The notes beneath the pieces are model-generated. The model did no database searches and had not been told where the DNA came from. It saw only the letters and a list, made by a program, of their open reading frames with translations. From NCBI GenBank assembly GCA_030141605.1, contig JAQGDQ010000773.1, positions 1 through 64,000 on the forward strand: 64,000 nucleotides of DNA, in the 5' to 3' direction. Position numbers and translations under genes: made by a program. Shown one piece after another: positions 1 to 41,200 of the stretch (the stretch's first letter is position 1; each line of letters begins with the position of its first letter). This stretch comes from Tubiluchus corallicola (lineage: Eukaryota > Animalia > Priapulida).

Positions 1-192
1 TTGATCTTTGTAACTTTGAATCTTAAAATTGTAGCTTTGAACATTAAAGAGGTGCTTGCATCTTAGATGGCCCCTTATCCTTTGCGCAGGAAGTTACTTG
101 TGTCAGCTTAACAAAAAAACGTGTTCGATCAACCCAAGGTAGTATTTTCATTACAAAGAATGGGTTCCGATAGTAAGTCGTTTTTGTTGCAG

Positions 193-3100
193 TTGTGAAC
201 CTACCAAAAACTGGCTACAATCATTTGACTACACAAAGTACCAGAAAAGTGAATCTGAAGCCAGACGCCTGCGAAACATTGGCAATGATTACTTCAGGAA
301 AAGGGATCATGAACTTGCTAAGGAGTACTATACCCAGGTATAGGCGCTGTATAATATTACAGTTGAGTCAACAAAAGTCATACATGTGGCATTTAACTGG
401 AGCTCATTCGAGCAACTTCCTTGGCTTTTATAAGGCCATTATGAAGCTGGAATTATTTATTTGACTATAATCTTGTTCGGTCTAAGCAAATTTAAACATT
501 TAGAGGTTAAAATCTGTTATTCTATCTATTTCAGAGCATTCTGGCTGCACCGGATGACGGAGCAGAATTGGCTCTAGCATACGGAAACCGGTCTGCTGTT
601 TACTTTGAACTGGATTCGTACGAGGTGTGTTTATTTGAAAATCAGATTTTCGTTATGGCTTTGTAGACTGTATACAGCATTCGACATTAGCACTTATGAA
701 GCTGGTTGTGCTGGTATCAGTACTTATTTCTCTATCAGCACTGAAACTACAGTGGTACGTTGGCTATGTTCTGATGCATGCATTTTTCTTCTATGAGGAA
801 CAGTTTTCCTAATGGTCACCAACTCATTTCCTGACCAAGCTTGGTGCTGCCTTACTTCGGTTATAAAATACCAAATTTGTGATTTGAGATTTTAGTTTAT
901 TGAAAAAGTGTAAAAATCAGGACTAGTGGGAAACTTTTTAGGTTAGACAATTAACTATGACATTTTGATTGATGTGACTTACATCTTACTGTTATAAGAC
1001 TAAAAATGGAGCAAACAAAAACACCTCTAAAGATAAACATGTTTGAAAGGACAAAAAACTCGACAAACATTGTTTTAAAATCTACGAATAATCTCTGTTT
1101 ATGTAAAGCAGTGTTTTCCATACTACTAGGAATTCTTCTTTCTTCCCAGCTTTTCCCTATGCGGGGTCGCCGTTGTGAATGAGTTTTCTCCGCGCATTCC
1201 TGTTGTTGAACACCTCTTCATTTATGTTCTTCTCTCTAAGGTCTCCATTAATAACATTCAATCCATCTCCGCTTGGGTCGTCCTCTTCTTCTATTTCCCA
1301 ACACCTCCATTTCTATGACCTCCCTTCCCACATGATCTTCACCGACTCTTCTTTTCAGGTGTCCATACCATCGCAATCTTGCGAGGCTTCCACTACTTTT
1401 ACTGTTCCTCTAATATTATTATTTCTAATTGTTCCTCTTACTACTAGGAATGTTTGGAAGATATATGTAATGCTCTCTCATGCGGGTATCCGCGGAATTC
1501 GCAACACAGATTGTACCAAAGACAGGCCAAGTGCTACATGAAAAATGCTGTATCTTCGTTGGAAAAAGCTTTGGAGGCGGTGGAGTTGAGCAGTTCGTTA
1601 GAAAGCGGTAAAAAAGGTAAACCGTGTTTAATAAAGCATCAGCATAAATATTAGTAACTGCATATAAAGGCCAGTTAGGTCTGATGACTTAACAACTCTT
1701 GTTGCAATTAAACTTGAAGCTGTTTTTGAGTGCAGCTAAAGGATACCGTAAACTGCGCATAACTCAAATCCAACTGTACTGAAAAAAACTTTGAGTTTGA
1801 CATTATTGACTGCCTCCAGATGGCGAGCTAAATAGAAGGCACAAAATGGATGAATATACACAATCCTGGAGAAAATACTTGGGGGGAGGGGGGCACGACT
1901 TGTAAGACATTATCATCAAAATTTTTCCAGAAGACAATGCTGTTTTTTAGTTGTACGAAACTTTTTATTTTTCTAGAGTATAAATTGCATTTTTGAGTTA
2001 GGCGAAGGAAATTACATATATTTTGATTAAATGGACCATAATTTTTTATTTGAGTTAGGCGAAATTTTGAGTTAAGCGAAATTTTGAGTTAAGCGATGTT
2101 TTTTGTGGGAAAAACGAAGGATTTTATCCGTTCCGCTGAAATTCTTTGAGTTAGGTGAAAATTTGAGTTATGCGATTTTGAGTTGCACGGAGTTTTCTGT
2201 ATTTCATTTAACATTCTGCTGATACTCATTTTCAATAAGGAATACTTTTATGGGCATTACCTAGATGCCCTTTCGTCATGCTGTTGTGAAACTTTTTGAT
2301 TCATTATCACATGAATATTGAAATAAAAGAAACGTGTGTTTGTGTTGACGACAACATGTACATTTTTCAGTGAGTATCACCCGCCGGCGGCCCGGCAGTT
2401 GCGTCTTCGGGAGACTATTATCGTTTTGTTTTCTTTTGTGAATTCACAAAATGTGCGATGCTGATTTTCCAAAAAAAGTACAAATAAACATTAGCAAAAA
2501 ATCATTTGTTGTTTTTAATGCATATTTTCAGAGAGCGTTAAACTGGAATTGACTAACGTTTTGGAAAAATTAAAATCTGAAGTGAGAACTGGGTAAATGA
2601 CTTTTTATTATTAATTTCACTTTTAATTTAATTTCTTTCTCCAATTTTTCTTTGCCGAAGATGCACAAACATTCTTTAGCTTTTGTTTTTCTGTTACGTA
2701 TGTCTGGTATTGCAGTTTTAGCAACAGTTAGCAACAATTTAACAACAATGATAAAAGAAATAGATGATTTGTGCCAATTTTAGTACTTTTGTTATTTTAG
2801 CAGATTTAACCATTTTTCAAGATTACCTAACAGCCGAACAGGTTGATTTTCTGTTTTTGCCTTTGTAGCTATAGATTTGAAAGAAATATTGGGCAACAGC
2901 AGATGCGTTTAGAACCCCGTGATGGTTTCCATGGCAAAATTTCGGCTGCATCGAAGGCACTAGAAATTAAACAGAGCGAGGCACAGGGACGGTATATTGT
3001 GGTAAGAAAATGTACTTAATTATGGTCCTTTAATTTGCATCATTAGCAGAAGCAGAATTGTTCCTTACATATAAATATGTTACGATTAAATGGAGTGGAA

Positions 3101-6100
3101 GAGAGAGAGAAGAGAGAAAGAAAGGAGGTTGTAAAGAGAAAGACAGAAGAAGCAAAGAAAGAGAGAGAGGCCGAGCGGGGAGGGTGTGAGACAGAGCTAG
3201 AGATATGTAGAATGATGGATGGAGGGAAGAGAGAGAAGAGAGAAGGAGAGAAGGTTGTAAAGAGAAAGAGAAAGACAAAAGAAACAAAGAAAGAGAGAGA
3301 GACCGAGAGGGGAGGGTGTGAGACAGAGCTAGAGATATGTAGAATGATGGATGGAGGGAAGTGAGAGTAGAGAGAAGGAAAAAAGATTGTAAAGAGGACA
3401 GAAGAAACAAAGAGAGAGAGACCCGAGAGGGGAGAGAAAGACTGATTAGGTCACCTAATAAAACAACTGTATCTTTCCTACGATTGCGATGTACAGTATG
3501 TGCTGTCGCAAAAATTGAATAGAAATGCATTTGACTTTGCCATTAGAAATCCAAACTTTTTCAGACAAATCGCAGGATATCTGCTGGAGATGTGCTGTTT
3601 GTTGAGAAGCCATATGCATCAGTTTTACTGCCTCATCAGTATGCTAACCGTTGCCATAACTGTTACCGTGTCCTCAAACTTACGTATGGGTAAGTATGAT
3701 TAATTATGTCATTGTTTCTGGGAGTGAGAACTAAATTCAACCCCTGTGTTTGTATACTATAGCAGCTTGAGTACTATTCAACTACTAAATGTAATTAATA
3801 TACAATAATATTTGAGCATAAAATTTCATGTAGGGCGTTAACAGTCTCCTAAGTGATTAAGGTTCAATGACTGGATGACCACTGGGCAGTAATGTCCAGC
3901 AGACAGTCTCCGGGCATTTGTCACATGCCAAATCTAATTCTGTCGTCTGTGTGCTTGGCTGAATACGTCCACTGGGAGACAAAAGTCGACACAGGCGTGA
4001 AGCAGACATTCTATAGTTAATGCCATATTGGCTTTGTTTAAAAATCAGTGATAATTTTAAGTGAAATCAAGTTCTGTTTACATAACGTCATTATTTGTGC
4101 ACTATGTGAAACTTAGTCACACTGTGCATGTCACCATATGTTTAAGATGAAACTAAAGCATCAGTTTTTGAACAAGTCATCAAAAACGGAAAACACTGAC
4201 ACTTTTGTTCAATATAATACATAGGCGCCACTTAATAGACTCACTTTGGGACGGAATTGTTTTGACCCAATTGACCAACTGGGTCAATTAGCCGAACGGT
4301 TTAGCGTAGCACTACTATACAAGCACGAGTCATCATTCATCACCTTGGTATGCATTCCAAAGGCTTTAAGTGAATTTTAGAAACGAATTAACGTCAAAAA
4401 TGGTTATGTGGAATTATTTAAGAAACATAATAAGTGAATTAATAAAAAAAAAAGAAAAAATAGCAAAAATCTGATTATTATTTACCATTAAAAATTACAA
4501 AAATTCATGCAAGGTCGGTTGTTTCATTTCTTCACGAAGAAGTTGCTTTATGAAATCCTCATAGTGATAAAAACATTGAAAACCCGTTACTGTATACAGC
4601 ACACATTCATGCAGAACACCTAGTCACCTAGTGCTTGAACTGCAGTTGGTGATGGCCTTGTTTCCCCTGCGAAAAGCAGCGGGAACTTCAAAAGCGAACC
4701 GCTGGACAAGTGATTAAATGTTTAACTTCCGGAAACAACAAGGTTAACTGCAGTGGACAAGCGGGTGACAGATTCAAAGCAAAACTGCTAAGGTAGCATA
4801 TTAGCACATATGATAAACATGCTGTACCTGTTTACAAACAAAACTGTATTTAACATGATTGTTTCTACACATACTATTGTGAAAAAAATCGATGTAAAGA
4901 TGACATAAAAGCAGCAAAAGCTCTTTGGTTACACACTTGTATCTTATTTTAAGTGCGTGAAGTAAAAATATTGAGTCAATTATGCCGAGTTATTTGGGTC
5001 AATTACTGACAGTTTCACGTACATTTGAATAGGAGCGGCCCGTACTAGACATTTTTGAGTCAACTAAGCGACTAAGTCTTTTAACCGTGAGTCTAAGAAA
5101 TGGCACCTACTGTATTGTGTTTGTTATATTGTACATCAGACAAATGTGTAACTGTTCTGTAGCTTATGTCTATTTTGAAACAGTGTCTGACTGATATGCC
5201 ACTTGTGGCGTCTACTGTCAGAGGTTGGATGCTGAGCTAACGTTTTATATTTGTTTTAGTTGCAGGCATTGTACACAAGTGCGATATTGCAGCAAGTCTT
5301 GTAGAGACGCAGCGTGGGACGTCTATCACAAATATGAATGTATGAAATTAGATGTACTTGACCAGGTAAGAAGTCCCAATCTGGAGTAGTGCTTCGAGTT
5401 TGTAGTGAGTATTAACGGGTTGCGTTTTTACTTGAACTAGATCTGAAAATTGAGATCTAAACTTCGTCTACACCAGTTTTTGTTTAACATTAAAACTAAA
5501 AACTAAGTCACACATGAAGATGTATGTTTTAATCACAACAGGACACGATGCCTGGATTCTTTATGACTTTTTAGTTTCACCAGTAAATAGCACCCTCACC
5601 CCACATTCTGTTCTATCTCATTAATACTCCATGCAGTTCATTTCTACTTACCACCAAAGTCAAACGAAACAAAATTTAGCATGTTGAAATTTTGCTGTGT
5701 CTAAACAAATATGCATGATTTTAGAAGTCGCAGTAATTTTACACTTGTTAAAAGCCTTTGAAGAATTCATAAATTTCGTAAAGCAAACAAGTATTTTAAT
5801 TTTAGGTGGGAATTGCTCACTTAGCCTACAGAATAGTATTAAGAACCGGATTATCATGTTTGCTAGGTACGTATACAAATCATTATAATTATCAGAAACC
5901 GTCACTTGGTTAAGTAACCAGTTTTTACTAATTTATTCAGACTAGAAATCAAGAGGTAAAATTAAACGAAGAAAGGATGATTTTTCATGTACTACCCCAT
6001 TTTCAAGTCTGATAAAAAGTTTACATTTTAACCCAGTTAATACTGCAAAACAGTTTCTGATAATTAAATAAAAAGTTAAAAACTTAATTAACGGCGGGTA

Positions 6101-9100
6101 AGCCTAACTAGTGATAAACTAACATAATTTTCAACAGCAAAAATATTCCACGAGCGTATTGCACGCGTTTGCGAAAGCGAAAATTGAAGTACAGTGCTAG
6201 TAAAGCTAGGCAAGTTTTAAGATAAAAATTCAGATTTCAGATTTACTGCTGTGCTCATGCATAAGCTGTCAAACTTGTGTAGTTCATCACAAATTAATGC
6301 ATCTGAACTGAGAGGTACAGCACCTGTTTTTGTGACAACGCGTTTCCGAAATGCAGGCGCTAGTGCAGTCTAACTAGAGATTGGTGTAATGCATGTAACA
6401 GCGAAAAACTAGTGGCGCGAACGTAAAATTATGTTTGTGTGGTAGTAATTCTTTCACATTTTTGGAAAAATAGTGTTTCCTTTCATTATTTTACAGAGTA
6501 GATTGTTTTGACCTACAGTTTAAGATTGGGTCCAGTTTGGCTTCCTACAGTTTAAGATTGGGTCCAGTTTGGCTTCCTACAGTTTAAGATTGGGTCCAGT
6601 TTGGCTTCCTACAGTTTAAGATTGGGTCCACTTTGGCTTCCTACAGTTTAAGATTGGGTCCAATTTGGTTTCCTACAGTTTAAGATTGGGTCCAGTTTGG
6701 CTTCCTACAGTTTAAGATTGGGTCCACTTTGGCTTCCTACAGTTTAAGGTTGGGTCCAGTTTGGCTTCAACTATAATTATTGCTGCTGTGACATTTCAGA
6801 TTTTAAATCTACGGTGTTGGAAGATGAACGTCAACAAAAACAAAAACCTGACATGACTGGTTGTCGTAACGGTTTTTACAACAATGCTTACTACACCGTA
6901 TATCATTTAGTGACTCACGCAGAAGATATGAATTCTGCTGACCAGTTACTCTTCACGATTGTAAGTAATCACCGAGTTAATGTGCTTGGAATATAATTAT
7001 TAAAATTTTGAATTCCTGCCATTTTAATTGTCACAGTACTGGTTTCAACTGAGGCCTTTCTATTGTCACAGTACTGGTTTCAATTGAGGCCTTTCCATTG
7101 CCACAGTACTGGTTTCAATTAAGGCCTTTCTATTGTCACAGTACTGGTTTCAATTGAGGCCTTTCTATTGTCACAGTACTGGTTTCAATTAAGGCCTTTC
7201 TATTGTCACAGTACTGGTTTCAATTGAGGCCTTTCTATTGTCACAGTACTGGTTTCAATTGAGGCCTTTCTATTGTCACAGTACTGGTTTCAATTGAGGC
7301 CTTTCTATTGTCACAGTACTGGTTTCAATTGAGGCCTTTCTATTGTCACAGTACTGGTTTCAATTGAGGCCTTTATATTGTCACAGTACTGGTTTCAATT
7401 GAGGCCTTTATATTGTCACAGTACTGGTTTCAACTTAGGCCTTTCTATTGTCACAGCACTGGTTTCAATTGAGGCCTTTCTATTGTCACAGTACTGGTTT
7501 CAATTGAGGCCTTTCCATTGTCACAGTACTGGTTTCAATTGAGGCCTTTCTTTTGTCACAGTACTGGTTTCAATTGAGGCCTTTCTATTGTCACAGTACT
7601 GGTTTCAATTGAGGCCTTTCTATTGTCACAGTACTGGTTTCAATTGAGGCCTTTCTATTGACACAGTACTGGTTTCAATTGAGGCCTTTCTATTGTCACA
7701 GTACTGGTTTCAATTGAGGCTTTCTATTGTCACAGTACTGGTTTCAATTGAGGCCTTTCTATTGTCACAGTACTGGTTTCAATTGAGGCCTTTCTATTGT
7801 CACAGTACTGGTTTCAATTGAGGCCTTTCTTTTGTCACAGTACTGGTTTCAATTGAGGCCTTTCTATTGTCACAGTACTGGTTTCAATTGAGGCCTTTAT
7901 ATTGTCACAGTACTGGTTTCAATTGAGGCCTTTATATTGTCACAGTACTGGTTTCAACTGAGGCCTTTCTATTGTCACAGTACTGGTTTCAATTGAGGCC
8001 TTTCCATTGTCACAGTACTGGTTTCAATTGAGGCCTTTCCATTGTCACAGTACTGGTTTCAATTGAGGCCTTTCCATTGTCACAGTACTGGTTTCAATTG
8101 AGGCCTTTCCATTGTCACAGTACTGGTTTCAATTGAGGCCTTTCCATTGTCACAGTACTGGTTTCAATTGAGGCCTTTCTATTGTCACAGTACTGGTTTC
8201 AATTGAGGCCTTTCTATTGTCACAGTACTGGTTTCAATTGAGGCCTTTCTATTGTCACAGTACTGGTTTCAATTGAGGCCTTTCTATTGTCACAGTACTG
8301 GTTTCAATTGAGGCCTTTCTATTGTCACAGTACTGGTTTCAATTGAGGCCTTTCTGTGTTTTATGCTTTTTATTTCAGCAGGTTCACTAAATCCTCGCTT
8401 AACGACATCCCATTTTGTGACTAATCGTTTTAACAGACAATGAAATCTTCCCACCCATTTTCTCATGTATCAAGGAATGATTTTAACGACGATTTTCCTA
8501 TTCTACATGTTTAACATTCTGTCATTTTAACGGCAGGCTTGCCGAATTCCAAACAGCAGCTGGTAAGACAAATGTTATGTACAGAAATAAGTTTAAGTAA
8601 CGCAGTATAGCAAGTAAAACTGGTAAATTGTTGATATGTTACTATTATTATTTTATATCATTGCACCATAACAGATACAGCCATACACACATATGCACAA
8701 AATATAACAAGAAATATTTAGTATAAACACACACACGAAAAAGAAATAAACAATTTACAAAAATGAGGCAGTACATATCATTAATTTTTCTTGTTATTCA
8801 CTGATAATCTTGAAAACATGTTAAATACATTAATAAATAGCTTCTTAACGTTCACGTTACCAATTCTCATAGATACATCATACTTTCTTCTTAAGTGACA
8901 ATAACTATTGTTAGTTAAATACATCATTAATTGAACATTATCGATCCCGAGTTTTTAATTTCTTTTAAAAATTTAATTTTCTACAATCAATTAGAAAGTT
9001 TGCAGGCATAGTACCACTGAATTCATTAAGACATGGACACTCAGTATATCAGTAAAAACTTTCTTAGGAAATTATGTTTCCTAGAAATAGATATCAGTGA

Positions 9101-12100
9101 CGCAAGGCAACTGCACAGCTCTGTAAAGATTTATCACAGCAAAGCAACTGCACAGCACTGTAAAGATTCATCACAGCAAAGCAACTGCACAGCACTGTAA
9201 AGATTCATCACAGCAAAGCAACTGCACAGCACTGTAAAGATTCACACAGCAAAGCAACTGCACAGCACTGTAAAAATTCATCACAGCAAAGCAACTGCAC
9301 AGCACTGTAAAGATTCATTACAACAAAGAAATTGTACAGCACTGTGAAGATTCACCACAGCAAAGAAACTGCACAACACTGTGAAGATTCATCACAGCAA
9401 AGCAACTGCCCAGCACTGTAAAGATTCATCACAGCAAAGCAACTGCACAGCACTGTAAAGATTCATCACAGCAAAGCAACTGCACAACATTGTAAAGATT
9501 CATCACAGCAAAACAACTGCACAGCACTGTGAAGATTCATCACAGCAAAGAAACTGCACAGCACTGTGAAGATTCATCACTGCAAAGAAATTGCACAGCA
9601 TTGTAAAGATTCATCACTGCAAAGAAACTGCACAGCACTGTAAAGATTTATCACAGCAAAGCAACTGCACAGCACTGTAAAGATTCATCACTGCAAAGAA
9701 ACTACACAGCACTGTAAAGATTTATCACAGCAAAGCAACTGCACAGCACTGTAAAGATTTATCACAGCAAAGCAACTGCACAGCACTGTGAAGATTCATC
9801 ACAGCAAAGAAACTGCACAGCATTGTAAAGATTCATCACTGCAAAGAAACTGTACAGCACTGTAAAGATTCATCACTGCATAGAAATTGCACAGCATTGT
9901 AAAGATTCATCACTGCAAAGAAACTGCACTGCACTGTGAAGATTCATCACAGCAAAGAAACTGCACAGCATTGTAAAGATTCATCACTGCAAAGAAACTG
10001 CACAGCACTGTAAAGATTCATCACTGCATAGAAATTGCACAGCATTGTAAAGATTCATCACTGCAAAGAAACTGCACTGCACTGTGAAGATTCATCACAG
10101 CAAAGAAACTGCACAGCATTGTAAAGATTCATCACTGCAAAGAAACTGCACAGCACTGTAAAGATTCATCACTGCATAGAAATTGCACAGCATTGTAAAG
10201 ATTCATCACTGCAAAGAAACTGCACTGCACTGTGAAGATTCATCACAGCAAAGAAACTGCACAGCATTGTAAAGATTCATCACTGCAAAGAAACTGCACA
10301 GCACTGTAAAGATTCATCACTGCAAAGAAACTGCACAGCACTGTAAAGATTCATCACTGCAAAGAAACTGCACAACACTGTAAAGATTCATCACTGCAAA
10401 GAAACTGCACAACACTGTGAAGATTCATCACTGCAAAGAAATTGCACAGCACTGTAAAAATTCATTACATCAAAGAAATTGCACAGCACTTAAAAATTCA
10501 TTACAGCAAAGAAATTCTTCCATTGAGCAATGAAGCCAACTTTCGGGGTGCTATCTGAACCCATAAGTTTTATAGATTTTCTTGTTACTTTTGAATTACT
10601 GCATAGCTAAGAAAAGTTATTCTTGATAAAAAGAATTTCATGAGGGCCATGAGGCTTGTCAAAACTGCACCATTTTTGTGTGTCTTTTAGACAGCTGGGT
10701 TCTTGCTGAAACTTCTCGACGACTCCGGTTTCTTCAATGTTGATTCTCTGCAGTTAGAAGATAAATTGTACATAGGTAAGTTAGAAGATAAATTGTACAT
10801 AGGTGAGTTACAAGATAAATTGTACATAGGTGAGTTAGAAGATAAATTGTACATAGGTAAGTTAGTAAATAAATTGTGCATAGGTAAGTTAGTAGATAAA
10901 CTGTGCATAGATAGGTTAGTAGATAAATTGTACATAGGTAAGATAGAAGATAAATTGTACATAGGTAAGTTAGAAGATAAATTGTACTTAGGTGAGTTAC
11001 AAGATAAATTGTACATAGGTGAGTTAGAAGATAAATTGTACATAGGTGAGTTAGAAGATAAATTGTACATAGGTAAGTTAGTAAATAAATTGTGCATAGG
11101 TAAGTTAGTAGATAAACTGTGCATAGATAGGTTAGTAGATAAATTGTACATAGGTAAGATAGAAGATAAATTGTACATAGGTAAGTTAGTAGATAAATTG
11201 TACTTAGGTAAGTTAGTAGATAAATTGTACATAGGTAAGTTAGTAGATAAATTGTACTTAGGTAAGTTAGTAGATAAATTGTACATAGGTAAGTTAGTAG
11301 ATAAATTGTACATAGGTAAGTTAGAAGATAAATTGTACATAGGTAAGTTAGTAGATAAATTGTACATAGGTAAGTTAGAAGATAAATTGTACATAGGTGA
11401 GTTAGAAGATAAATTGTACTTAGGTAAGTTAGAAGATAAATTGTACATAGGTGAGTTAGTAGATAAATTGTACTTAGGTAAGTTAGTAGATAAATTGTAC
11501 ATAGGTAAGTTAGTAGATAAATTGTACATAGGTAAGTTAGTAGATAAATTGTACATAGGTAAGTTAGAAGATAAATTGTACATAGGTAAGTTAGAAGATA
11601 AATTGTACATAGGTAAGTTAGAAGATAAATTGTACATAGGTAAGTTACAAGATAAATTGTACATAGGTAAGTTAGAAGATAAATTGTACATAGGTAAGTT
11701 AGAAGATAAATTGTACATAGGTAAGTTAGAAGATAAATTGTACATAGGTGAGTTACAAGATAAATTGTACATAGGTAAGTTAGAAGATAAATTGTACATA
11801 GGTAAGTTAGTAGATAAATTGCACATAGGTAAGTTAACTTGCTCTCCTGTTATTATATCTCAAGGTGACATTGTAATTTGCATAGTTTTTAATCAGCTTA
11901 TTTTACATGCACAACAGTGGCAGCTCATGCATAGGCACTGTGGAGCTGCACCACTCCTACTTTCACTCGATATTATCAATAATATTCAATATAATCAAGC
12001 CGTTTTTCTTTAGTTCTTTTTTTATACTTGTACGGAAGCAGAGCACATGAGGGTAGTACTGTTTGCTTCACAGCCCAGCACAGTGCACTCCAGCACACAT

Positions 12101-15100
12101 GTGAGCATAGGTAGAGAAACACATTTAGCTCACACAGTTTGTTGTCAGTTGTCACATACTTACCATGAATGGATTTCACTTAAAGTGCGACAATTTAGCC
12201 TATTCGTAAGCAAAAAATTTTTTTGTTTAGGATTTTATCAAGTTTTTTTTTATCATGTATAAACTTTCGTATATTTACTTGTTTAAAATTACAATTACAA
12301 ATTACAACATTAAAATTATGTAATTATATTTGTCTCATTTTATACAGTATTAAAACAAGGGCTAAAAATTTTCTGAAGCAGCGCCCCAGTAATTTTAACT
12401 ACGAGCCGCCACGGAGACACACAGTGAAACAATAAGTGACATACTCCAAGAAAGAATTCTGATTTGATCTACGCTTCTTTCGTTCACATGTCTACTTCAG
12501 TTTTTTATCATATGTAAAACTACTGCTCTTTCTGCTATATTCAGGGTGCATAAGATTATGGATATGTATAAAATAAATAAAATAGCTTATTTTATGGATT
12601 TTTGAAATTTTATTTTATGGATATCAATAAAATAAGAAATAGACTATATTTGGAACGAGATGCCCAGGGGGAAATCAATTAAAAAGTAAAAACAGGAGTG
12701 CTTGAAACGTGTTTTTAAACACACAGGACTTAGTTTTAATTTTATCAGTTTCATATCACTTCAAATTTAATCAAATTTTACGAGACAATGCCTTGTAATT
12801 CATCACTTCAGTTCAAATAATTCATCTATTTGGGACGAATGTAGAAAATGCCCTCTAGGCTGAAGTTTCCGATCCAATGCCTGTATTCAGTTTTGATTGC
12901 CTTATTTTGTACAAAAAATCACAAAAAAAATATTTTTTATTTTATGCATTTCTTATTTTTGGATTTTTCAAATTTTATTTTATGGATTTTTGGTCTTATT
13001 TTATGGATATCAATAATCTTATGCAGCCTGGCTATATTCCTGCTTAGAAAATTTACATTTTTGTACTGTTCATGAAACATTACTTTTCATTACATTTTTT
13101 TATGAACGTAGGTTCCTTGTTGTATCGACATTGTCAACAACTTGTGTGCAATGCCCATGCGATCACTGCATTACAAGCTTCAGATGCACTGCCCCTTGGT
13201 GATGAAGCCATGTTTGAAGAAGAGGAGCAGATTCGGATAGCCACGGCAATCTACCCGTCTGCCAGCCTAATGAATCACGCTTGCGATCCAACTATTATAA
13301 ACAGGTAATCATTATTAGGAAAGATAAGAAACCATTTTTAAATAAATCTAAATAAAACTAAACAAACTAAAATTAATTGTCCTGTGGTTCGTAGTTAATT
13401 TTGCTTTTTCAAACTATTTACAGAGGCATGTGTATGTTAGCGAATGTGCAATTTTTTTTAGCTCAGCCTGTGACTCCGATTTAAAATTTTCAAGGCTTTT
13501 AAAAGAGATCTGTTTATCAATTAATGTTGCAGTTGCAAGTACAAGTCTTGTGATAATGTAATTTTTTTAAACTTTACTTGATCATTTTCACTTTAAATTT
13601 TGACACTGCAATGAATGTGTGCTTTTGTTACTATGAGAGAAAGACGTTTAACTTCAACTGGAAAATGTCAGTGTTTTTATTTTTTAGTTTTGATGGAAGC
13701 ACGTTAGTCGTAAAGGCTGTGAAAGATGTTGAAAAAGGCCAGGAGGTGTACAACTGCTATGGTAAACTTTGTAAATAAAATATTTGCTAATTTTTGGCAG
13801 AGTTAGTTCAACTGAAAACTTCAAAAAGATATAACGATTTTTGATTCGTTTAACGAAAAGAATGGCACATTTACAATTTAAACAGTTCAACTCTTTTCAA
13901 ATTATGGCTTAAGAAGGACATCACACTTACAACAATTAGTTTAACGGTTAATTAATTAAAGAAAGAGGCACTGAAAAATTGTGCACAAACCAGGATTCGA
14001 ACCCAGAACCTCCTGCTTACATGGCTGGCTGCTCTACCATTTCAGCTGCACATAGTACTGAATCTAGTTTACTTGGACGGTTGTGGTAGGGCCGGAATCT
14101 AGCTGATTATTAAGGCTATCAAGTGGACAAAGGTGTCTTAGGCACATTTGCAAGTACAATTATATTTAAGCCCTCCCTGAACAAGATTAACAGCTGCTTG
14201 GAGTATGGTAGACGAAGCATAGAACTACTTTTCTTGGCAGTCATCCATCTGGTTACTTACCAGATCCACTGCTTAATCTCATTACCAAGTTCACATTGTG
14301 TTTACTCAGGTATTTCCTCACCATTTGAAGAACTTTTACGAGTATGTATGTGGAATTGGGAAAAATGAGTGATAGGAAACTTTGTCTCCAAACAGTGACC
14401 TTCTGGTCTCCCACTCCTCAAACAATGACCTTCTGGTCTCCCACTCCTCAAACAATGACCTTCTGGTCTCCCACTCCTCAAACAATGACCTTCTGATCTC
14501 CCACTCCCCAAACAATGACCTTCTGGTCTCCCACTCCTCAAACAATGACCTTCTGGTCTTCCACTCCTCAAACAATGACCTTCTGGTCTCCCACTCCTCA
14601 AACAATGACCTTCTGGTCTCCCACTCCTCAAACAATGACCTTCTGGTCTCCCACTCCTCAAACAATGACCTTCTGGTCTTCCACTCCTCAAACAATGACC
14701 TTCTGCTCTCCCACTCCTCAAACAATGACCTTCTTGTCTCCCACTCCCCAAACAATGACCTTCTGGTTTCCCACTCCTCAAACAATGACCTTCTGGTCTC
14801 CCACTTCTCAAACAATGGCCTTCTGGTCTCCCACTCCCCAAACAATGACCTTCTGGTCTCCCACTCCTCAAACAATGACCTTCTGGTCTCCCGCTCCCCA
14901 AACAATGACCTTCTGGTCTCCCACTCCCCAAACAATGACCTTCTGGTCTCCCACTCCCACATGGTTTGCAATTCACAGAAATTTCTAAAGTGAAAATATG
15001 TAGTAGTACTTATCACTATTGAAACGTTTTAATTTCGGAAAGCAAGCTGAAAATTACTTAGTAACATTACCGTGTTTTATCACTTGCTTTGTTCTATATT

Positions 15101-18100
15101 GCATTTATTTTACTTGCATTTTTTTTCATCAGGACCTCATTTTCGCCGAATGCCTTTACAGGAGAGACGAGACTCCTTACAACAGCAATACAAGTTCTTT
15201 TGTCAATGCACAGCTTGCATACAAGGAGATGAAGACATGAAATTATATGAAGTAAAATGAAAAATATAATTTATAGTGTATTGGATTTTTAAAATACCAA
15301 GTATTTTTATTTGCACTGAAACACAGGAAATGTATCTTGCCATTTATTCAGTTAAAATTGGCCAGTTTGTTGAACTTGGTGAAGATTTATAGGTTTTAAT
15401 CTTGTGTTTTGGATAAGAGCAGTAGCATTGTCATTGGCGTAATTACACACCCCTGCAGTTGCAGTTGTCCTTGGTTGTAAAGAACTGCCAAGGACACAAA
15501 AATATTGCATAATTACATTTACTTGGTACTTTTGCTTACTTGAAATGAATAACAGGAAAAATTTAAAGACAATTTGAGACAGTTTTATAACTGATTTGTG
15601 CTGATTTGAAAAATGAGTAGGTTGCATAAATTTTACCAATGAATGCTGGGGGCTCACTGTATTATTTTACAGGAAACTTCCCAAGTGTGAAGCTATACTA
15701 CTAGGTGTGGTTTGCTTTGATAGCAGGAAACTCCATAGTTTGAAAATCTCAAAGTTGGATTTATTGTTTGTTTTTATCAGTTTTGTGTCAAGAAAGCAAT
15801 GATATGTGAGTTAAGTGCGATTCTTAGAGTAGTTTTAATCATAATTGTTTTTTATGGGAACCGCTAAAGTTTTCTGACTGATGTAATTCTAGTATAAATA
15901 CAAATTTAATCAAATTATTCATCATACAGTTGTCATAAGTAGTAGACAGGACCATAGATAATGCCGTTTTAGCTTTAATATTTGTTAAACTTATGATACG
16001 GATTAGTTCATTTTCTGTTAACAGGCTCAGCTGTGTAGTGCCTGCAGCGGCCCAGTTGTAAATTTGGTGTGTCGAGATTGCAAAAGCGAAATTGATGCTG
16101 AAAAGAACTTTCAGGTACGTTTATGATGTGTGACACGTTTTATTCAATAAATATTGATAATAAATAATACGAAAACTGATTAGATGCATAGTAAAGAAAC
16201 AAGATGTACCTATTTTCATAGAGAGCAAACTGTTTCATGTAAGAAACTGTACATAATGATGATTCAATATCTATCAATTTAGGCAGTGAATTTTGTAATT
16301 TGTTGAAGTCGTTCTACACTGATATAGGCAATTGTAGTTGTAGTTTGATTAAAACTACGTTTTCAATGCAACTATCTTTTAAGTGTAGTAATTTATCATT
16401 TTTATGTAGCTGGCTATATTTTTTCTATACCTTATCCATCGCGGTATTTTAGGAAATAAGTACTTTGAGCTCTATGAAGAATTTTTATAGTAGACCTGCA
16501 TATACATGTATATAACCAGACAGCATGCGTGATGAATAATACTTTCCAATTGGAAGGTTGTGGGTTCAATACTGTGGCTGTGGTATGTCATTTGACTGGT
16601 GCTGCTGTCATTGCTGTCTTTGGAAGGTTGTGGGTTCAATACTGTGGCTGTGGTACGTCATTTCACTGGTGCAGCTGTCATTGCTGTCTTTGGAAGGTTG
16701 TGGGTTCAATACTGTGGCTGTGGTACGTCATTTGACTGGTGCAGCTGTCATTGCTGTCTTTGTGGTTCTTTTGTAACAAAAATCTCTTTATGAAGAATTA
16801 TAATAAAATTTTGAATTTATCTATTATGAATTTCTGTTATAAAGTTGTAGTTTGATCTTTACTGTCGGTTTTAAACTTCTTCATACTCTGAAAGTTCGAA
16901 TTATTTGTCAGATTTAATGACGACTATAAATAAAAATATTTTTTATCATTATAATAATATTTTTCATGTGGCTTAAATTACTTAGCACATTTTTTAATTA
17001 GCAGGTGATCAAGCACGCTCATGAATTACGCCACGAAGGTGTAACCAAGCTTCAGAGTGGTGATAACAGAGATGCTTTAGAGATGTTTTTGAAAAGTGCT
17101 GCATTGTTGGAGAAAGTACTCTATAAACAAAACAAAGAGTTAGCTATTGCATGGGATGCTATTGCCAAGTGCTATGCACAATTAGGTATTTGCTATTCTG
17201 TGACTAAAATTATTAAACTTAGATGAGATGTCTTTAATCAAACTTTAAGGTTTCAGATTATAAACCAAGATTAAGAACAGAATATAGCTAAAGTAACTTC
17301 TGAAAAGAGGAGAAAACTTTGGGAAAGGTATTAGTGTGAACAAGCCTTAAATCACTTCAAGGGCAAGAAAAGGGGTACCTGAAGTAGATTTCAGAAAAAT
17401 TGCCTTTAAAAATTATATTACTTTATAGTAGTTTTATGCGTATATCTTACTCGAGTTGAAAGGATTTTCGGTTTTTCATTTTAAATTTCCCCGCTACTGC
17501 TTCGACCACGCAAGTACGTGATGTCACTACGCACACTGTAGATCAGAAAAAGAAAAGACAATGTTAAACTATGCCCCAAAAGACTTTCCATGCAAAGTTA
17601 TATTACTTAGCTTATCACTTACTTGCTTGAAAGAGTTATGTAACTGGAAAAGAAAATTATTAATTATTTAAAATGTTTTCACCAATTGGTAAAATGTCGC
17701 TGACTCACCTTCCAGGGTGCACCACTCACTAACCAAAAGCGTATTTTTAATCTTGTTGACAAGATACAGTAATTTAAAATTTGTACTTAGTGACGTGCAC
17801 ACTACGAAAGCTCTGATTATTTTATCAAACTTTACTCATTGTTATCTAAACTTGTTTCAAATGACTTATTGCCAAAATGGCTGCATGTAACGGTCATTGC
17901 GAGAGTTTAAATTTACATATTTTATACAGTGTTACTGCCCATGCAAGCCCTGTATGCAAAAGGGCAGTATGTAAGTGTTTCAAAACGAATTTTTAAGCTT
18001 CATGTAAGTGGTTGTGGTTTAAAGCAACACGTGAAAATCTATTGTAAATGTGACTAAAGTCTTTCTTATTTTTTTAGATGCCAGTCGTATCAAAACAACG

Positions 18101-19722
18101 ATTGTTGTCTTTTCAGTATCAGGGTTTTTTTATTGTTTCTACAACGTTTGAAATTTTCATTTTTTTTAACAGACGATTTTGAAAAGTCGGCAGATTATCT
18201 TTCAATGGCAGTGGACATTGTTGGTCAAGTCTACGGAAGCAGTTCCATTGAAGTGGGAAATGACTTACTGAAGTATAGCGACGTACTTTACTGTTTGCTT
18301 AAACAAATCATGCCTAAGTGGGACCATGTCAAAGATAGAAAATTCATGTAGGTCTGATAATTGCTGTAAAGTGTAAACTGCATGTGCTTTTTATACATTC
18401 TGGCACATTGAAACCCAACATTCAATGGCAGCTCTACTCCACGTGATGTTTGTGGTGAGAACTTTCTTTGTTCATTATCAGTAGTGTTCGTCTAAGATAA
18501 GATTGAACTGACAAAAGTTTCCTAGCCACGTTTTCCTAGTACGTTTGGCGGTACATACTTCTTCTAACCAGGTAAATGGCCAGAATCAGTATGGTGACTT
18601 GTGCGTGTTTGCCGTTGCCGCTGCCTTTGGCAAAAAATTGTAAGATATTTAAAGTTTGTTGTTGGCATTGTGAATCTCACCAAACTATTGTAAAATTGTC
18701 TGAACATGCACCAAACCTATGCAAATGTCTCAACAGTTATTCATACTATTCATCAACGATTTCAACATTTGCGAAAACTTGGAAAACGTTTTGAGATGCT
18801 TTTGAGAAGATTTCGATCGTTTTTCAACATTTTGGCAACATTAGGGAAAACCACTGTTTTCCCACTTGTCCTACGTTTCTTTCCACAAAAATACTCGCAC
18901 GAAATTAGTGCACCATTCGCTAGTTACAGAACGAATGGTTGTGTCATTGAACATGCTAAAAAGTCGCTAAACATGCACAAATACTCATGCTGATTTCGTG
19001 TGACAATCTCACGATTTTCGCTCGAGAAACGAGCCCGAAAATCTGCAAAAACAACTGGTGAATGTTTTGTGACCTGGGTGACAAAACAAAGCAGCGATAA
19101 TTTTTTGGCAGCTGTTGGACTTTTAAAATTTTTGATAGTCACAAAAAAGTCATGGCCCTTAGAAATCATGGCTTTGCCTTTGGTTGCCTAGCACACAATG
19201 AGACCATTTGTCTATTCACCTCCTCTCTAACCTATATCGTGCTTAAAAAAACTAAATTGCCTTTCCCTTTAAGTGTTTCTTATACTGTACTTTTGAAAGA
19301 CTATAATTATTTACCTAGCTGTATGTGACTATCGAATGGATATGGGCATTTAACTAAACAGACCTGTTTGTATGGATAAGACTAGTAAGAAAAACTATAT
19401 AATTGCACATTGTTTTTGTTGAAGTTCTCTTATTTCCGCACTCTTACTCATGTTCTCTTTACTGAAAAGTTCCGCACAACAGACTCGGTAAACGCGGAGC
19501 CTGCAACAAAATTTTTAATCTAGCAGTTTTCTGGAACTTTCATTAACTCAGTTTTTCTTGTACTTTAGTGATACACTAAAGAAGACTAAAGAAGTGATCC
19601 GTCGAGCACTGAAGATATTTCATCTGCATTTCACTGAATCACACGAATCTATAAAAGATCTGGAGGAAAAAGAACAAGCATTGAAATGTATCTCAGGAAT
19701 GTATGAAGAACTTATTTGGTAG
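193..19722 (+). CDS. SMYD4: SET and MYND domain protein 4-like lysine methyltransferase (5'-partial, 17 exons, ~706 aa visible)
   Basis: Phase-consistent GT-AG exons: 193-337, 535-624, 1448-1616, 2532-2592, 2869-3001, 3565-3689, 5260-5365, 5806-5866, 6800-6960, 10691-10775, 13112-13304, 13688-13761, 15133-15251, 16025-16114, 17005-17185, 18173-18347, 19569-19722 (TAG). N-terminal TPRs (RNIGNDYFRKRDHELAKEYYTQ; LALAYGNRSAVYF), split SET (GRYIVTNRRISAGDVLFVEKPYA), MYND finger (CHNC..CRHC..YCSKSC..HKYEC), SET motifs (IYPSASLMNHACDP; EVYNCYGP), post-SET FCQCTAC, extra CxxC..CxxC and C-terminal TPR-like helices. The start codon was not found in the window. Confidence 0.92.
795..865 (-). mobile_element. 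5S rRNA-like (SINE3-type) remnant; related remnants near 27260-27325 (+) and 39590-39640 (-)
   Basis: Reverse complement ccgaagtaaggcagcaccaagcttggtcagg...ggtgaccattaggaaaac resembles the 5S internal control region (aagctaagcag...cctggttagtacttggatgggagacc) but is highly diverged. Confidence 0.4.
1134..1438 (-). mobile_element. 5'-truncated RTE-clade LINE fragment with 13-bp TSD
   Basis: The minus strand encodes a degenerate RTE ORF2 C-terminus (RLRWYGHLKRR...GNRRRGRPKRRW...DL...GDPA*) followed by a GAA-rich tail. TSD tactactaggaat is at 1121-1133 and 1439-1451. Confidence 0.85.
1746..2199. mobile_element. MITE, TA-flanked (Tc1/pogo-like)
   Basis: Imperfect TIRs ccgtaaactgcgcataactcaaa / tttgagttgcacggagttttctg, TA on both sides, multiple subterminal ttttgagtta(g/a)gcga repeats. 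Confidence 0.6.
3090..3440. repeat. GA-rich low-complexity tandem repeat (~125 bp x ~3)
   Basis: Block ggagggtgtgagacagagctagagatatgtagaatgatggatggagggaag recurs at ~3180 and ~3311. Confidence 0.8.
4220..5112. mobile_element. TA-flanked non-autonomous DNA transposon; partial inverted copies at ~20590-20910 and ~63430-63510
   Basis: TIRs ca(g)taggcgcca..tagactcac / gtgagtcta..tggcacctactg with TA flanks. The internal sequence 4700-5045 matches the reverse complement of the other two loci. Confidence 0.7.
5962..6770 (+). mobile_element. TTAA-flanked non-autonomous element, family A (Kolobok-like)
   Basis: ~580-620 bp dispersed repeat that also occurs at 40701-41283 (+), 60378-60996 (-), 51178-51570 (+, partial) and 28380-28845 (-, partial). 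Best copies start ttaa-AGGAAGAC and end GTTTTGCT-ttaa. Confidence 0.75.
6513..6770. repeat. 32-bp minisatellite x ~8, amplified terminus of the family A element
   Basis: Unit ctacagtttaagattgggtccagtttggcttc; present once at the end of the other family A copies. Confidence 0.9.
7028..8356. repeat. 35-bp minisatellite x ~38
   Basis: Unit tattgtcacagtactggtttcaattgaggcctttc, near-identical copies. Confidence 0.97.
9105..10515. repeat. 37-bp minisatellite x ~38
   Basis: Unit cacagcactgtaaagattcatcac(a/t)gcaaag(c/a)aactg, with a higher-order periodicity in ~9780-10330. Confidence 0.97.
10754..11834 (+). repeat. 27-bp minisatellite x 40 made of SMYD4 exon end + 5' splice site
   Basis: Unit TTAGAAGATAAATTGTACATAG|gtaag. 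The first copy is the coding end of exon 10691-10775. First and last AG|GT junctions (10775, 11828) are 1053 nt = 39 x 27 apart. Confidence 0.97.
11915..12414 (+). mobile_element. CAGTGGCGG-terminated MITE, family B (hAT-like); copies at 37761-38333 (+) and 29686-30185 (-)
   Basis: TIR cagtggc(a/g)gctc(a/g)t / acgagccgccac. The internal sequence (tattatcaataatattcaatataat...gagggtagtactgtttgcttcacagccca) is shared among three loci. No TSD was recognised. Confidence 0.75.
12542..13030. mobile_element. hAT-superfamily MITE with intact 8-bp TSD
   Basis: TIRs cagggtgcataagattat / ataatcttatgcagcctg. Perfect TSD gctatatt at 12534-12541 and 13031-13038. Subterminal ttttatggat repeats. Confidence 0.92.
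13981..14051 (-). mobile_element. tRNA-derived SINE head or tRNA pseudogene (Thr-TGT-like)
   Basis: Reverse complement gtgcagctgaaatggtagagcagccagccatgtaagcaggaggttctgggttcgaatcctggtttgtgcac has A box TGGTAGAGC and B box GGTTCGAATCC. The stems are imperfect, so it is not called a functional tRNA. Confidence 0.65.
14391..14959. repeat. 30-bp minisatellite x 19
   Basis: Unit aacaatgaccttctggtctcccactcctca; explains four overlapping spurious ORFs. Confidence 0.97.
16551..16761. repeat. 70-bp tandem repeat x 3
   Basis: tggaaggttgtgggttcaatactgtggctgtggta...gctgtcattgctgtctt at 16551, 16621 and 16691. Confidence 0.92.
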
Positions 19723-20039
19723 CTGCTTATTTTGTGAAAACTGTGAAATGTTAAGGCAACTCGTGTCAGAAATAAAAATATTGCAAAACTGATTGTATGT
19801 TTGTATGTCACTGTCTTAATTCATTCAAGACATCCTGCTAATGTTATGCTTAATAAACACGTGAGAGTTATAATACTTACAGCAAACATCTTGTGATAAT
19901 TGACAAAAAAGTCACACAATCGAGACATTGAAAAACCAGGATCTTCCAGTTCCAGTCAACTGTTGTGTAGTCTTCCATGGTGAAAGGACCAAAAAAAGTA
20001 AAAAAGCCAAAAAACATGAAATGTTCATTTTTTGCAATA

Positions 20040-23895: not shown

Positions 23896-24286
23896 CATAA
23901 AAGACAGAAACATTTCATACAAAAGGTTCTTTGTATCACTTTATTTATGTAACTTGGAAGGCACTCATATAATGGGGGAGTTATGAGAGCAACAGAGTGA
24001 CAAAAGTTAGATGGTGTTTAACAGAGACATTAACAAAGCAGCCATTCCTTCCATACATGTTCCTTTTATTTGCGCTGTAGACTTGTAATGGGTAAGCAAA
24101 CGTTTTACCTGCACTAGTAAAAGCTGTGCTCCTTTATCATTATCAGCAGAAACATTTGACTCGCAGATGAGAATGCAATAACTGTGACCTGCAGTACTAA
24201 TTATTTTGCTTAAATTTCAAGAAGTATGTAAATATAAACACTGTCTATCACAGAACTTTGCAGTTTATAGTAATCTGTTCAAGGCG

Positions 24287-25129
24287 ATGACTAATGTGAC
24301 AGAGAACATCACTTACAGCGGAAAACAAGACAGCAAAATCATTTTAGTGCTGACTCTACATTTAATCTTGGCCATTCCCATAATTGTTGGTAATCTTCTT
24401 GTTCTGGTTGCAGTTTGTAAATATGAACAGTTGCGGACAAAAATGAATGCAATGGTCGTGTCACTAGCTGTTACAGATTTGTTAATCGGTGTAATCGGTC
24501 TTCCAATAAAAACTGTGAACATACTGACAAAAAAGGATAGTACAGTAATATATCTAGTATTTCTGACTTTAACTTATACGAGTATTCTGCACCTGGTTGT
24601 CATAGCTGCTGAAAGATACATGGCTGTTTTACATCCGTACAAGTACAATATATATGTCACTAAGAAAACGATAATTTGTGCACTTGCCATTACATGGCTG
24701 CTTGCGACTATTACAGCCTGCATTTTCATCTCATTTTCTTGGGATAAACAGGAAATGTTGTTCATTTTCTTAATTTTCAAACGCATTTTATTTTTCTACA
24801 TACCAATGGTTATAATTTCTGTCTTGTATGTGTTAATATGGAGGGCAGCACGGAGGCAAGTGTTGAGAATTCATCAAGAAAATCCGGAAAGCAGTATAAA
24901 AGTATCAGAAATGAAGGCAACAAAAATGTTGACTGCAGTCACGCTGGCATTCATGATTTGCTGGGGTCCTAGATTCATCATGCCTGAGGGCATTATGTCC
25001 ATTGAAATGCGAGGGTTCATCTTCTGGTTGGGGCATTGTAACAGTTTCGTAAATCCATTCATCTATGCAGTTCTGAACAGCAAATTCAGAGAAGCTTTCA
25101 AGAAGATTTGCCTGTGTAAAAATGATTAA
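24287..25129 (+). CDS. Intronless orphan rhodopsin-family (class A) GPCR, 280 aa
   Basis: Single ORF from ATG 24287 (MTNVTENITYS, two N-glycosylation sequons). Seven hydrophobic segments with TM1 GN, TM2 SLAVTD, TM3 ERY, TM4 W, TM5 P..Y, TM6 CWGP, TM7 NSFVNPFIY and helix 8 FREAF followed by Cys residues. The ORF track's start at 24206 is a TTG extension. Confidence 0.93.
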   Translation: MTNVTENITYSGKQDSKIILVLTLHLILAIPIIVGNLLVLVAVCKYEQLRTKMNAMVVSLAVTDLLIGVIGLPIKTVNILTKKDSTVIYLVFLTLTYTSILHLVVIAAERYMAVLHPYKYNIYVTKKTIICALAITWLLATITACIFISFSWDKQEMLFIFLIFKRILFFYIPMVIISVLYVLIWRAARRQVLRIHQENPESSIKVSEMKATKMLTAVTLAFMICWGPRFIMPEGIMSIEMRGFIFWLGHCNSFVNPFIYAVLNSKFREAFKKICLCKND

Positions 25130-38200: not shown

Positions 38201-41200
38201 AATTACAATTACAAATTGCAACATGAAAATTACATATGTTTGTTTCGTTTTACACAGTATTAAAACAATGGCTAAACATTTGGGGGTTTGTCTGAAGCAG
38301 AACCCCACTAATTTTAACTATGGCCTGCCACTACACAGAGTTACTATTGCACATGCATATGTTGTTTTACAATTGGGCAAATGACAAATGACTGTTAGTC
38401 AGAATATGTATTTATTAAACTTTTCATTGTTCACGTTTTGCACAGGAAGATTCTGTCTCTGTCACTCAAATGGGAAATTTCTCTTCATTGAAATTTCCAG
38501 GTTTTCTTATGCTTGGAAAAACGTAAAATTAATAAAATGCCAAATCTGTTACATACCATCGAAACTGTTTTCGAGTATTTTAATAAAGAATTAACAAATA
38601 GGTGTAAAGCATAAGAAAACACTCTTCATAAATAAAGCTTAAAAAATTCATCTGGAAATTTTATATCAGTTACAAGCTGTTTTACTGTATCCAGATTGCA
38701 GAACTTGAGTTAGCAGCATAACGCTGTATAAAACTTGTAAATTTAAACTGCCGTGATGACAGTTAGGCGGAGCCATTTTGACAATCAGTAACTCATTTGA
38801 AATAAGTTTAGCGAACACTGAATGAAGTCTAAAAAATAATCAGAACATTTATAACACACATTTCCCTAACTAAGCAAACGTTTAAATTACTTCATATTGT
38901 CAGTAACGCCAATTGTGGTGAATCGGTGATGCACTCTGGGATGGCAACGCAGTACCGCAGCACGAATAATTCAATTTATTAAAAATTTTCTTTTCTAATT
39001 ACATAAGTCTTTCAAACAGGTGAGCTTAATATTAAGTAATATAACTTTGTGCGGAAACTCTTTTGGGACACACTTTAAATTTGCATTTCTTCTCCTTTAA
39101 TGTACGAGTAATTCATATTTAACAAGCATGTAAACAACTAGAACAAGCAAACTATTCAGTGTATTAAAACACCTTCCCTCCCTACATTTACATTATATAT
39201 GTATACAAACTACTTACCCTTTCCTCTTCGTGTTGGTTTCATTTCTGCCTCACTAGATGGAGCAGCATCTGCGCCTGATGGCTTGCTGCTTTCGCTTAAC
39301 AGTTCGGCGGCTACATCAGCATCGTCTACCTGCACTTCGGACACCATGTTACACGGTATTAATCCAACTTGTCCACCTGTCTCGCCACGATAAAATCCGT
39401 CCTCATCTTTATCGCCGAGTACCTATTCAAAATCAAATACTGAATCCAACACTCTGCCACAATCCAACATCAGCAGTGGAGGGCTAATTTTCAATAGTTG
39501 TGGCAAGACTGGAAATAACATAATTGCCAAGAATAGTCTTTTAAGATGAGACACTAGACTGGCACACCATGCTGAAAAGTTAACATAACAGTCACCTATC
39601 CGCTTACTAACCAAGCCCCATGTTGTTCAATGTCATGCTCTGACCACTCAACTATTTCATTTGCCTAATATATACCTGCTTAGAATAAATTGGGATTTAC
39701 GTCACATAATGGGTGACTATTTTGCACCTTTACCAATTGTCCAGCTTTAAACATCTTGAAATGCATTTTGTACCTTTATCAATTGTCCATCTTTAAACAC
39801 ATTGAAATGCATTTTGTACCTTTATCAATTGTCTAGCTTATTGAAATGCATTTTGCACCTTTATCAATTGTTCAGCTTTAAACATACTGAAATGCATTTT
39901 GTACCTTTATCAATTGTTCAGCTTTAAACATATTGAAATGCATTTTGTACCTTTATCAATTGTCCAGCTTTAAACACGTTGAAATGCATTTTGCACCTTT
40001 ATCAATTGTCCAGCTTTAAACATATTGAAATGCATTTTGTACCTTTATCAATTGTCCATCTTTAAACATATTGAAATGCATTTTGTACCTTTATCAATTG
40101 TCCAGCTTTAAACATATTGAAATTCATTTTGTACCTTTATCAATTGTCCAGCTTTAAACATCTTGAAATGCATTTTGTACCTTTATCAATTGTCCAGCTT
40201 TAAACATATTGAAATGCATTTTGCACCTTTATCAATTGTCCAGCTTTAAACATATTGAAATTGATTTTGTACCTTTATCAATTGTCCAGCTTTAAACGTA
40301 TTGAAATGCATTTTGTACCTTTATCAATTGTCCAGCTTTAAACATTAACTCCTCGCTGCACGCATCTGGATTTGGTGACATGACTTTTGGATCATAATCA
40401 AAAAGCGCAACAAACATCCTGACGCTACTCATCGAATCTTTGCGCTGCGGTTGTGTTTGGTCAACCGAACTTCGATGACCGGGCGTCTTCGGCATTTCAC
40501 GTCTTCCTTCGGTTTGTCTGCCAATTCGTGAACACTTTTTATATTCCACTTGTACGTTTGAAATGAGTGAACCACAAAGAACAAGACAATTATGTAACAT
40601 TTTATTTTAAAACTGCCTGATTAAAGTCAATTATGGTTATGATATACTTGTTCATAGCACAACTCAACATACGGTAGAATCCCAAATGCAACAGGCTTAT
40701 TTAAAGGAAGACAAGATGATTTTTCATATACTACCCTATTTTCAACGATAAAAAGTATACATTTTAGCACAATTAATACTGCAAAAGCATTTCTAATAAT
40801 TAAACAATAGATTAAAATCTTAGTTAACGGTGGGCGAGCCCAACTATTGGTGACATCACAAATAAACATAATTTAAAACAGTAAAAGTATTCCATGAGCA
40901 TGTTTCACAAAAGTGTTGTACAAAAACTAGGCAAGTTTTAAAATAAAAATTCAAATTTCAAATTTACCGCTGTGCTCACGCATGAGCTGTCGAACGTGCA
41001 TAGTTCGTCACAAACTAACACATCTGAATTGAAAGGTACAGCACCTGTTTTTGTGCAACACTTTCCGAAATGCAGGCGCTAGTGCCCGTCTAGCTAGCGA
41101 ATGGCAGAATGCATGTAACAGCTAAGAACTAGTGGCGTGAATGCGAAATTGTGTTTGTGTGGTAATAATTCTTTTACGTAAGTCGTTTTTGAAAAAAAAA

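Follow-up and report, generated by a model that had tools for sequence, protein, structure and literature searches.

A 27-bp minisatellite straddles the end of an 85-nt exon in the SMYD4 gene of the priapulid Tubiluchus corallicola and carries the 5' splice site of that exon, head to tail, into the following intron. The array is probably removed with this intron, most transcripts using the first donor and minor forms being longer by 9 or 18 residues. It is a further example of the boundary-spanning minisatellites already known, larger than most and in frame. The window, i.e. the whole stretch of DNA analysed, covers 64,000 nucleotides (contig JAQGDQ010000773.1, assembly GCA_030141605.1, positions 1 to 64,000 of the forward strand), and all coordinates refer to it.

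Homology identifies the host gene as SMYD4. Of 87 candidate proteins, 61 matched the conserved exon downstream of the array, and those with a name are mostly SMYD4 with 52-65% identity; the best SMYD4 matches came from molluscs, arthropods and a nemertean, all at 65% identity or less. In tblastn, SMYD4 homologues matched in order along 179-19683, over the TPR, MYND and split SET regions. The 13 mapped internal exons measure 61-193 nt, and the intron which follows the repeat-bearing exon is 2336 nt long (Table 1). A run search with 10520-19900 brought up no RNA run containing this region, and a single RNA run chosen by species label is nearly devoid of this gene's sequence, with five short intronic pieces, less than 90% alike, on 11840-14380, none on exons and none on 10520-10790, and it says nothing on expression or donor use. 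At the last SMYD4 junction (18344-18352 and 19575-19720, forward strand), an apparent in-exon AT/GTAGGT donor (the slash marks the splice boundary) overlaps an in-frame TAG, so that read-through would end the protein there.

Table 1. Features of the two donor-spanning arrays and of the surrounding SMYD4 exons (positions in the window)
Feature	Positions	Strand	Basis or remark
SMYD4 exon upstream	6800..6960	+	phase 1 in, phase 0 out; AG/GT ends, frame, tblastn of homologues
85-nt SMYD4 exon, last 22 nt = array unit 1	10691..10775	+	sequence; weak tblastn support from 4 homologues; ends in phase 1; donor at 10776 presumed authentic
27-bp x 40.2 minisatellite	10752..11836	+	unit = exon end + 5' splice site; 12 unit types
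5-base microhomology AGTTA, left copy	10752..10756	+	sequence; absent from the sequence-only reading
Higher-order duplication	10835..11185	+	units 4-8 exactly repeated as units 12-16, 216 bp apart
Dead donor, unit 6 (ATAGG)	10911..10915	+	sequence
Dead donor, unit 14 (ATAGG)	11127..11131	+	copied along with unit 6 in the block duplication
40th and last donor	11829..11834	+	if used: 1138-nt exon, +351 aa
5-base microhomology AGTTA, right copy	11832..11836	+	sequence; absent from the sequence-only reading
First in-frame stop on read-through, past the array	12011..12013	+	translation
Next SMYD4 exon, 193 nt, conserved SET-region motifs	13112..13304	+	phase 1 in; homology, tblastn
46-bp x 14 donor-spanning minisatellite, SH3 exon of RIMBP2-like gene	39719..40345	-	unit = last 27 exon bases + 19 intron bases; stop at 40294

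TRF describes the SMYD4 array with a period of 27, 40.2 copies, 93% matches and 0% indels. Read in register from 10754, it resolves into 40 units, each made of 22 exon-end bases and 5 intron-start bases; unit 1, which consists of the last 22 nt of the exon plus GTAAG, is also the array consensus. GTAAG or GTGAG occurs in 38 of the 40 units, ATAGG in units 6 and 14. As 9-mers, the donors read TAG/GTAAGT in 28 units, identical to donor 1, TAG/GTGAGT in eight, TAG/GTAAGA in two and TAG/ATAGGT in two, with AG/GTRAGT present in 36 of 40, and they are near-perfect matches to U1. Three marks of a boundary minisatellite are found: a first unit spanning the exon-intron boundary, a donor reiterated head-to-tail in the intron (38/40), and tandem-repeat turnover inside the array, seen in its 12 unit types and its exact block duplication. 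Ten of the 11 array variants are present in at least two units. Allowing up to 7 mismatches in 27, the unit has no other copy in the 64-kb window. The occurrence of AGTTA at both array ends is what is expected of a local duplication at microhomology; a microhomology-bounded duplication of the exon-end and donor piece, by slippage or repair, may have started the array, and unequal exchange may have enlarged it.

The frame of the repeat-bearing exon is open for 440 codons, up to the stop at 12011. An earlier reading made from the sequence alone (hereafter the sequence-only reading) had described forty copies of a 27-bp unit of exon end and 5' splice site, about 38 strong donors with two reading AG/ATAGG, phase-1 donors compatible with the exon at 13112, and a frame open through the whole array. 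These descriptions hold: the copies in TRF and in the unit-by-unit reading, the donors at exactly 38 of 40 with units 6 and 14 dead, the junction in its frame and phases, and the open frame in that the stop lies past the last donor at 11829. The openness itself is no more than chance would give and is almost automatic. With a phase-1 donor and 5 intronic bases per unit, the codons read through the splice site are NGT and RAG, which are never stops, so that reading through a phase-1 GTRAG necessarily keeps the frame open. Three of the six frames of the array are open, two of them antisense, and three stop-free frames also occur in the 30-bp array at 14389, which is wholly intronic. Only the unit length, a multiple of three, is a coincidence, and five of the ten long arrays in the window have such units.

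Compared with unit 1, the array contains 11 distinct substitutions, ten non-synonymous and one synonymous (2.9 expected, P 0.17); none of them is a stop (P 0.32-0.53 by chance) and four lie inside the donor 9-mer (3.7 expected). From these 11 substitutions, neither the peptide nor the donors show signs of selection, in a test whose power is low with so few changes, and with one of 11 synonymous, neither the synonymous excess nor the protected frame of a coding repeat under selection was found. The variants fit drift, and neither the protein nor the donors look preserved.

A second donor-spanning array, 30 kb from the first, was found at an SH3 exon of a RIMBP2-like gene. It holds 14 near-identical donors, one of its units being 7 bases short, and is out of frame. 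Its stop precedes donor 2, so that only the first donor can yield an SH3 domain there; the six-residue spacing which donor 1 produces with the next exon at 39422 is exact in 20 of 21 homologues. If the RIMBP2-like gene works, then, as read from its sequence, the spliceosome of this animal picks the first donor out of many that are nearly identical. Taking the gene to be functional, donor 1 would have to be used, a conclusion which leaves the use of the other donors aside. The RIMBP2-like donors are weak (AAG/GTACAA in ten and AAG/GTGCAA in four of 14), whereas those of the SMYD4 array are near-perfect. The two arrays form a natural test, one being in frame with strong donors and no penalty on leakage, the other out of frame with weak donors and leakage fatal to the domain, and the pair could set first-donor scanning against intron-proximal choice in an invertebrate.

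Minisatellites of this kind have been described in other animals. The 37-bp VNTR of human F7 intron 7 has the same layout, unit 1 spanning the exon-intron boundary and identical donors being repeated in the intron; in the accessible text of PMC1557585, the most upstream of these donors is the only one used, and in constructs where the first usable donor is placed further downstream, efficiency drops and the exon is skipped. The number of units in F7 is 5-9, with 4 exonic bases, and its donor use is measured, whereas the SMYD4 array has 40 units with 22 exonic bases, is in frame, carries near-consensus donors and is known from sequence. Many repeated donors are also found in human 6-16 (IFI6), with 25 extra donors, and in human CBS, with 15-20 units; there splicing uses the authentic donor and also the next two, and LMNB2 and PDGF use the first donor only, according to the same portion of PMC1557585. 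The SMYD4 array exceeds 6-16 and CBS both in copy number and in the coding share of each unit. The unit of 6-16 measures 12 nt and is in frame. The 'mirage' minisatellites of amphioxus (Adh3, troponin C, globins, PGBD5) are, like the SMYD4 array, tandem duplications across exon-intron boundaries in an invertebrate, with several in one genome, and the available text of PMC3087553 and PMC3902484 describes splicing as undisturbed by them; the SMYD4 array occurs in another animal and at a higher copy number. In the 25-bp VNTR of human ABCA7 intron 18 each unit likewise contains a donor, at the unit start, and one unit is retained in about 2% according to the text consulted (PMC5954066). Unlike the SMYD4 array, the ABCA7 VNTR is not in frame and contains no exonic bases; it is known to affect expression and the skipping of the next exon. 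The literature search, with most subscription papers and supplements outside its reach, found no many-rung in-frame donor ladder.

The junction falls in a part of the protein which varies in length. Between two anchors flanking it, the span is 54-199 residues in the 34 of 42 full-length homologues that have both anchors, the largest values possibly including gene-model errors; in this SMYD4 it would be 55 residues with donor 1 and 406 with the last donor. An AlphaFold2 model of the homologue P0035 (mean pLDDT 89.9, 42 sequences) places a low-confidence loop at 366-385 before a helix at 386-405, the start of which matches the repeated exon end. Since the loop is of variable length, a few extra 9-residue units are likely tolerated according to this model, which favours harmless leakage and keeps a ladder of isoforms in consideration; and since the donor 1 span stands at the short end of the range, several extra units are compatible with homology. 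An insert of the whole array would lie, as the homologous sequences suggest, far beyond the natural range. Pfam gave two matches on the read-through peptide, both below their cut-offs. The tyrosine of unit 1 against the histidine of unit 40 was considered as a mark of the coding copy and set aside as weak, the matching column being variable (Y 5, F 6, W 1 and H 0 of 37).

In the preferred reading, exon definition across the 85-nt exon would select donor 1, and a small leak to donors 2 and 3 would escape decay and be tolerated; the resulting +9 and +18 aa forms are plausible because the units keep the frame and the loop into which they fall varies in length. Published cases and the RIMBP2-like array make the dominance of donor 1 in SMYD4 likely. 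The fallback offered by the sequence-only reading, one donor picked among near-identical competitors, was right. Its proposal of a length dial with about 38 isoforms is without support, given that no selection appears on peptide or donors, that the RIMBP2-like array needs donor 1, and that published cases use one to three donors. A many-rung ladder, in which a good share of transcripts would use donors well inside the array and SMYD4 would carry a variable 9-residue repeat in its SET insert, regulated or tolerated, is unlikely. In its favour are the 38 of 40 intact donors, 28 with the 9-mer of donor 1, all in frame and so free of decay, and the position of the repeat in the variable loop before the helix; moreover, the distance between neighbouring donors, 27 nt, is shorter than the 30-45 nt needed, in the accessible text of PMC3413131, for the downstream site to take over. 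Yet peptide and donors are not conserved, published cases end at two extra donors, the literature search gave no many-rung in-frame case, and the out-of-frame RIMBP2-like array indicates first-donor choice in this very animal. It is likewise improbable that forty donors, too close together for U1 particles to sit comfortably, produce a true SMYD4 ladder of 0 to tens of 9-residue units whose extent is set by allele length. If the ladder were true, donor choice would be making a coding repeat out of a non-coding minisatellite, and a long ladder would exceed the two extra donors of reported cases and show an intronic-to-coding route for repeats.

When two strong donors are separated by more than about 45 nt, human cells and extracts prefer the downstream one, as reported in the part of PMC3413131 consulted. 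This preference underlies the ladder and also the reading in which splicing takes the intron-proximal donor, every unit being exonic and SMYD4 having a fixed insert of about 351 residues. The frame open past the last donor and a beta-rich AlphaFold2 model of the read-through repeat (mean pLDDT 70) agree with this outcome, which is nonetheless very unlikely: the span would be roughly twice the homologue maximum, ten of 11 changes are non-synonymous, the F7 constructs falter when their first usable donor is shifted in that direction, and a proximal rule would break the RIMBP2-like SH3 domain. The model itself was rejected as belonging to a known class of artefact, confident beta-solenoid models of repeats being documented as such for AlphaFold2 (PMC11795689, as far as its accessible text goes). 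The array might otherwise act mainly on efficiency, its length lowering SMYD4 output or promoting the skipping of a neighbouring exon, in the manner of the ABCA7 VNTR, which correlates with lower expression and next-exon skipping in the text consulted (PMC5954066); the frame shift that would follow from skipping the 85-nt or the 193-nt exon speaks against this, and such a role appears only faintly probable. The array and its copy number are read from the assembly, which gives one haplotype, and it might be absent from the DNA or much shorter there. That possibility is slight: recurring variants, an exactly duplicated five-unit block and the lack of indels form a pattern of real turnover rather than read error, and by this sequence evidence an assembly artefact is unlikely. 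Hardly credible, finally, is recursive (ratchet) splicing through the internal AG/GT sites, the configuration of which the sequence-only reading had remarked upon. AG/GT is present in each unit, but the pyrimidine share is 0.33-0.44 before the 40 internal AGs against 0.50-0.83 at the 13 mapped SMYD4 acceptors (one of them placed 1-2 nt off), so that no pyrimidine tract precedes the internal sites. Recursive splice sites typically lie in very long introns, whereas this one is short, and the mature mRNA would be unchanged. The suggested fit to intron gain by tandem duplication also fails, the duplication straddling an existing boundary. In the Rogers model, as given in the accessible text of PMC3087553, a duplicated exonic AG/GT piece supplies both donor and acceptor of the new intron; here the acceptor at 13111 lies 1.28 kb past the array, beyond sequence repeated elsewhere in the window. 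By eye, the acceptor end (13103-13111) shares 7 of 9 bases with the unit end; as a trace of intron birth this likeness was discarded, since it consists mostly of the obligatory YAG.

As it stands, the SMYD4 array is one more boundary-spanning minisatellite in a minisatellite-rich genome. Ten long arrays with units of 27-60 bp, chosen from 52 TRF rows (8 or more copies and a unit of 27 bp or longer, leaving aside the 49451 lead-in and rows that overlap), cover 9159 of 64,000 bases, or 14% of the window, and three of them lie in SMYD4 introns just upstream of the 27-bp array. An enrichment of arrays at donors was considered and set aside: two of ten span a donor against 0.15-0.26 expected with 30-50 donors assumed, yet one of the two was ascertained, and a second would arise by chance with P 0.13-0.21. 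Five mutually unrelated arrays (7027-8355, 9102-10514, 10752-11836, 49580-51008 and 52914-54179) have 38, 38, 40, 41 and 47 copies and lengths of 1.1-1.4 kb, a similarity which may be set by mechanism or by assembly. The arrays at 6512-6768, 7027-8355 and 52914-54179 lie no further than about 30-70 bases from an exon end, which they do not span; a bias of arrays towards exon flanks is possible. In the first two of these, both in SMYD4 introns on the forward strand, the units contain a pyrimidine-rich run ending in CAG and thus form rows of acceptor-like sites, which the spliceosome would also have to ignore. A 60-bp x 15 array at 57185-58184 (reverse strand) lies shortly past a probable RIMBP2-like exon and has AAG/GTGAGT in one unit, some of its frames being long and open and others containing stops.

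Further elements were observed in the window. An interspersed repeat of about 500 bases, its copies 69% alike, is present at 11931-12412, in the SMYD4 intron just past the array, and at 37801-38331, in a RIMBP2-like intron. An open stretch of 950 nt at 42794-43747 suggests that long exons occur in this animal, a point that tells against the preferred reading of the SMYD4 array. A small multi-exon gene at 28970-32280 (forward strand) has coiled-coil-like exons and an open stretch at 30156-30602, with no Pfam family above cut-off, and an intronless frame of 313 codons at 24188-25129 (forward strand) encodes a rhodopsin-family GPCR (Pfam 7tm_1, E 5e-37).
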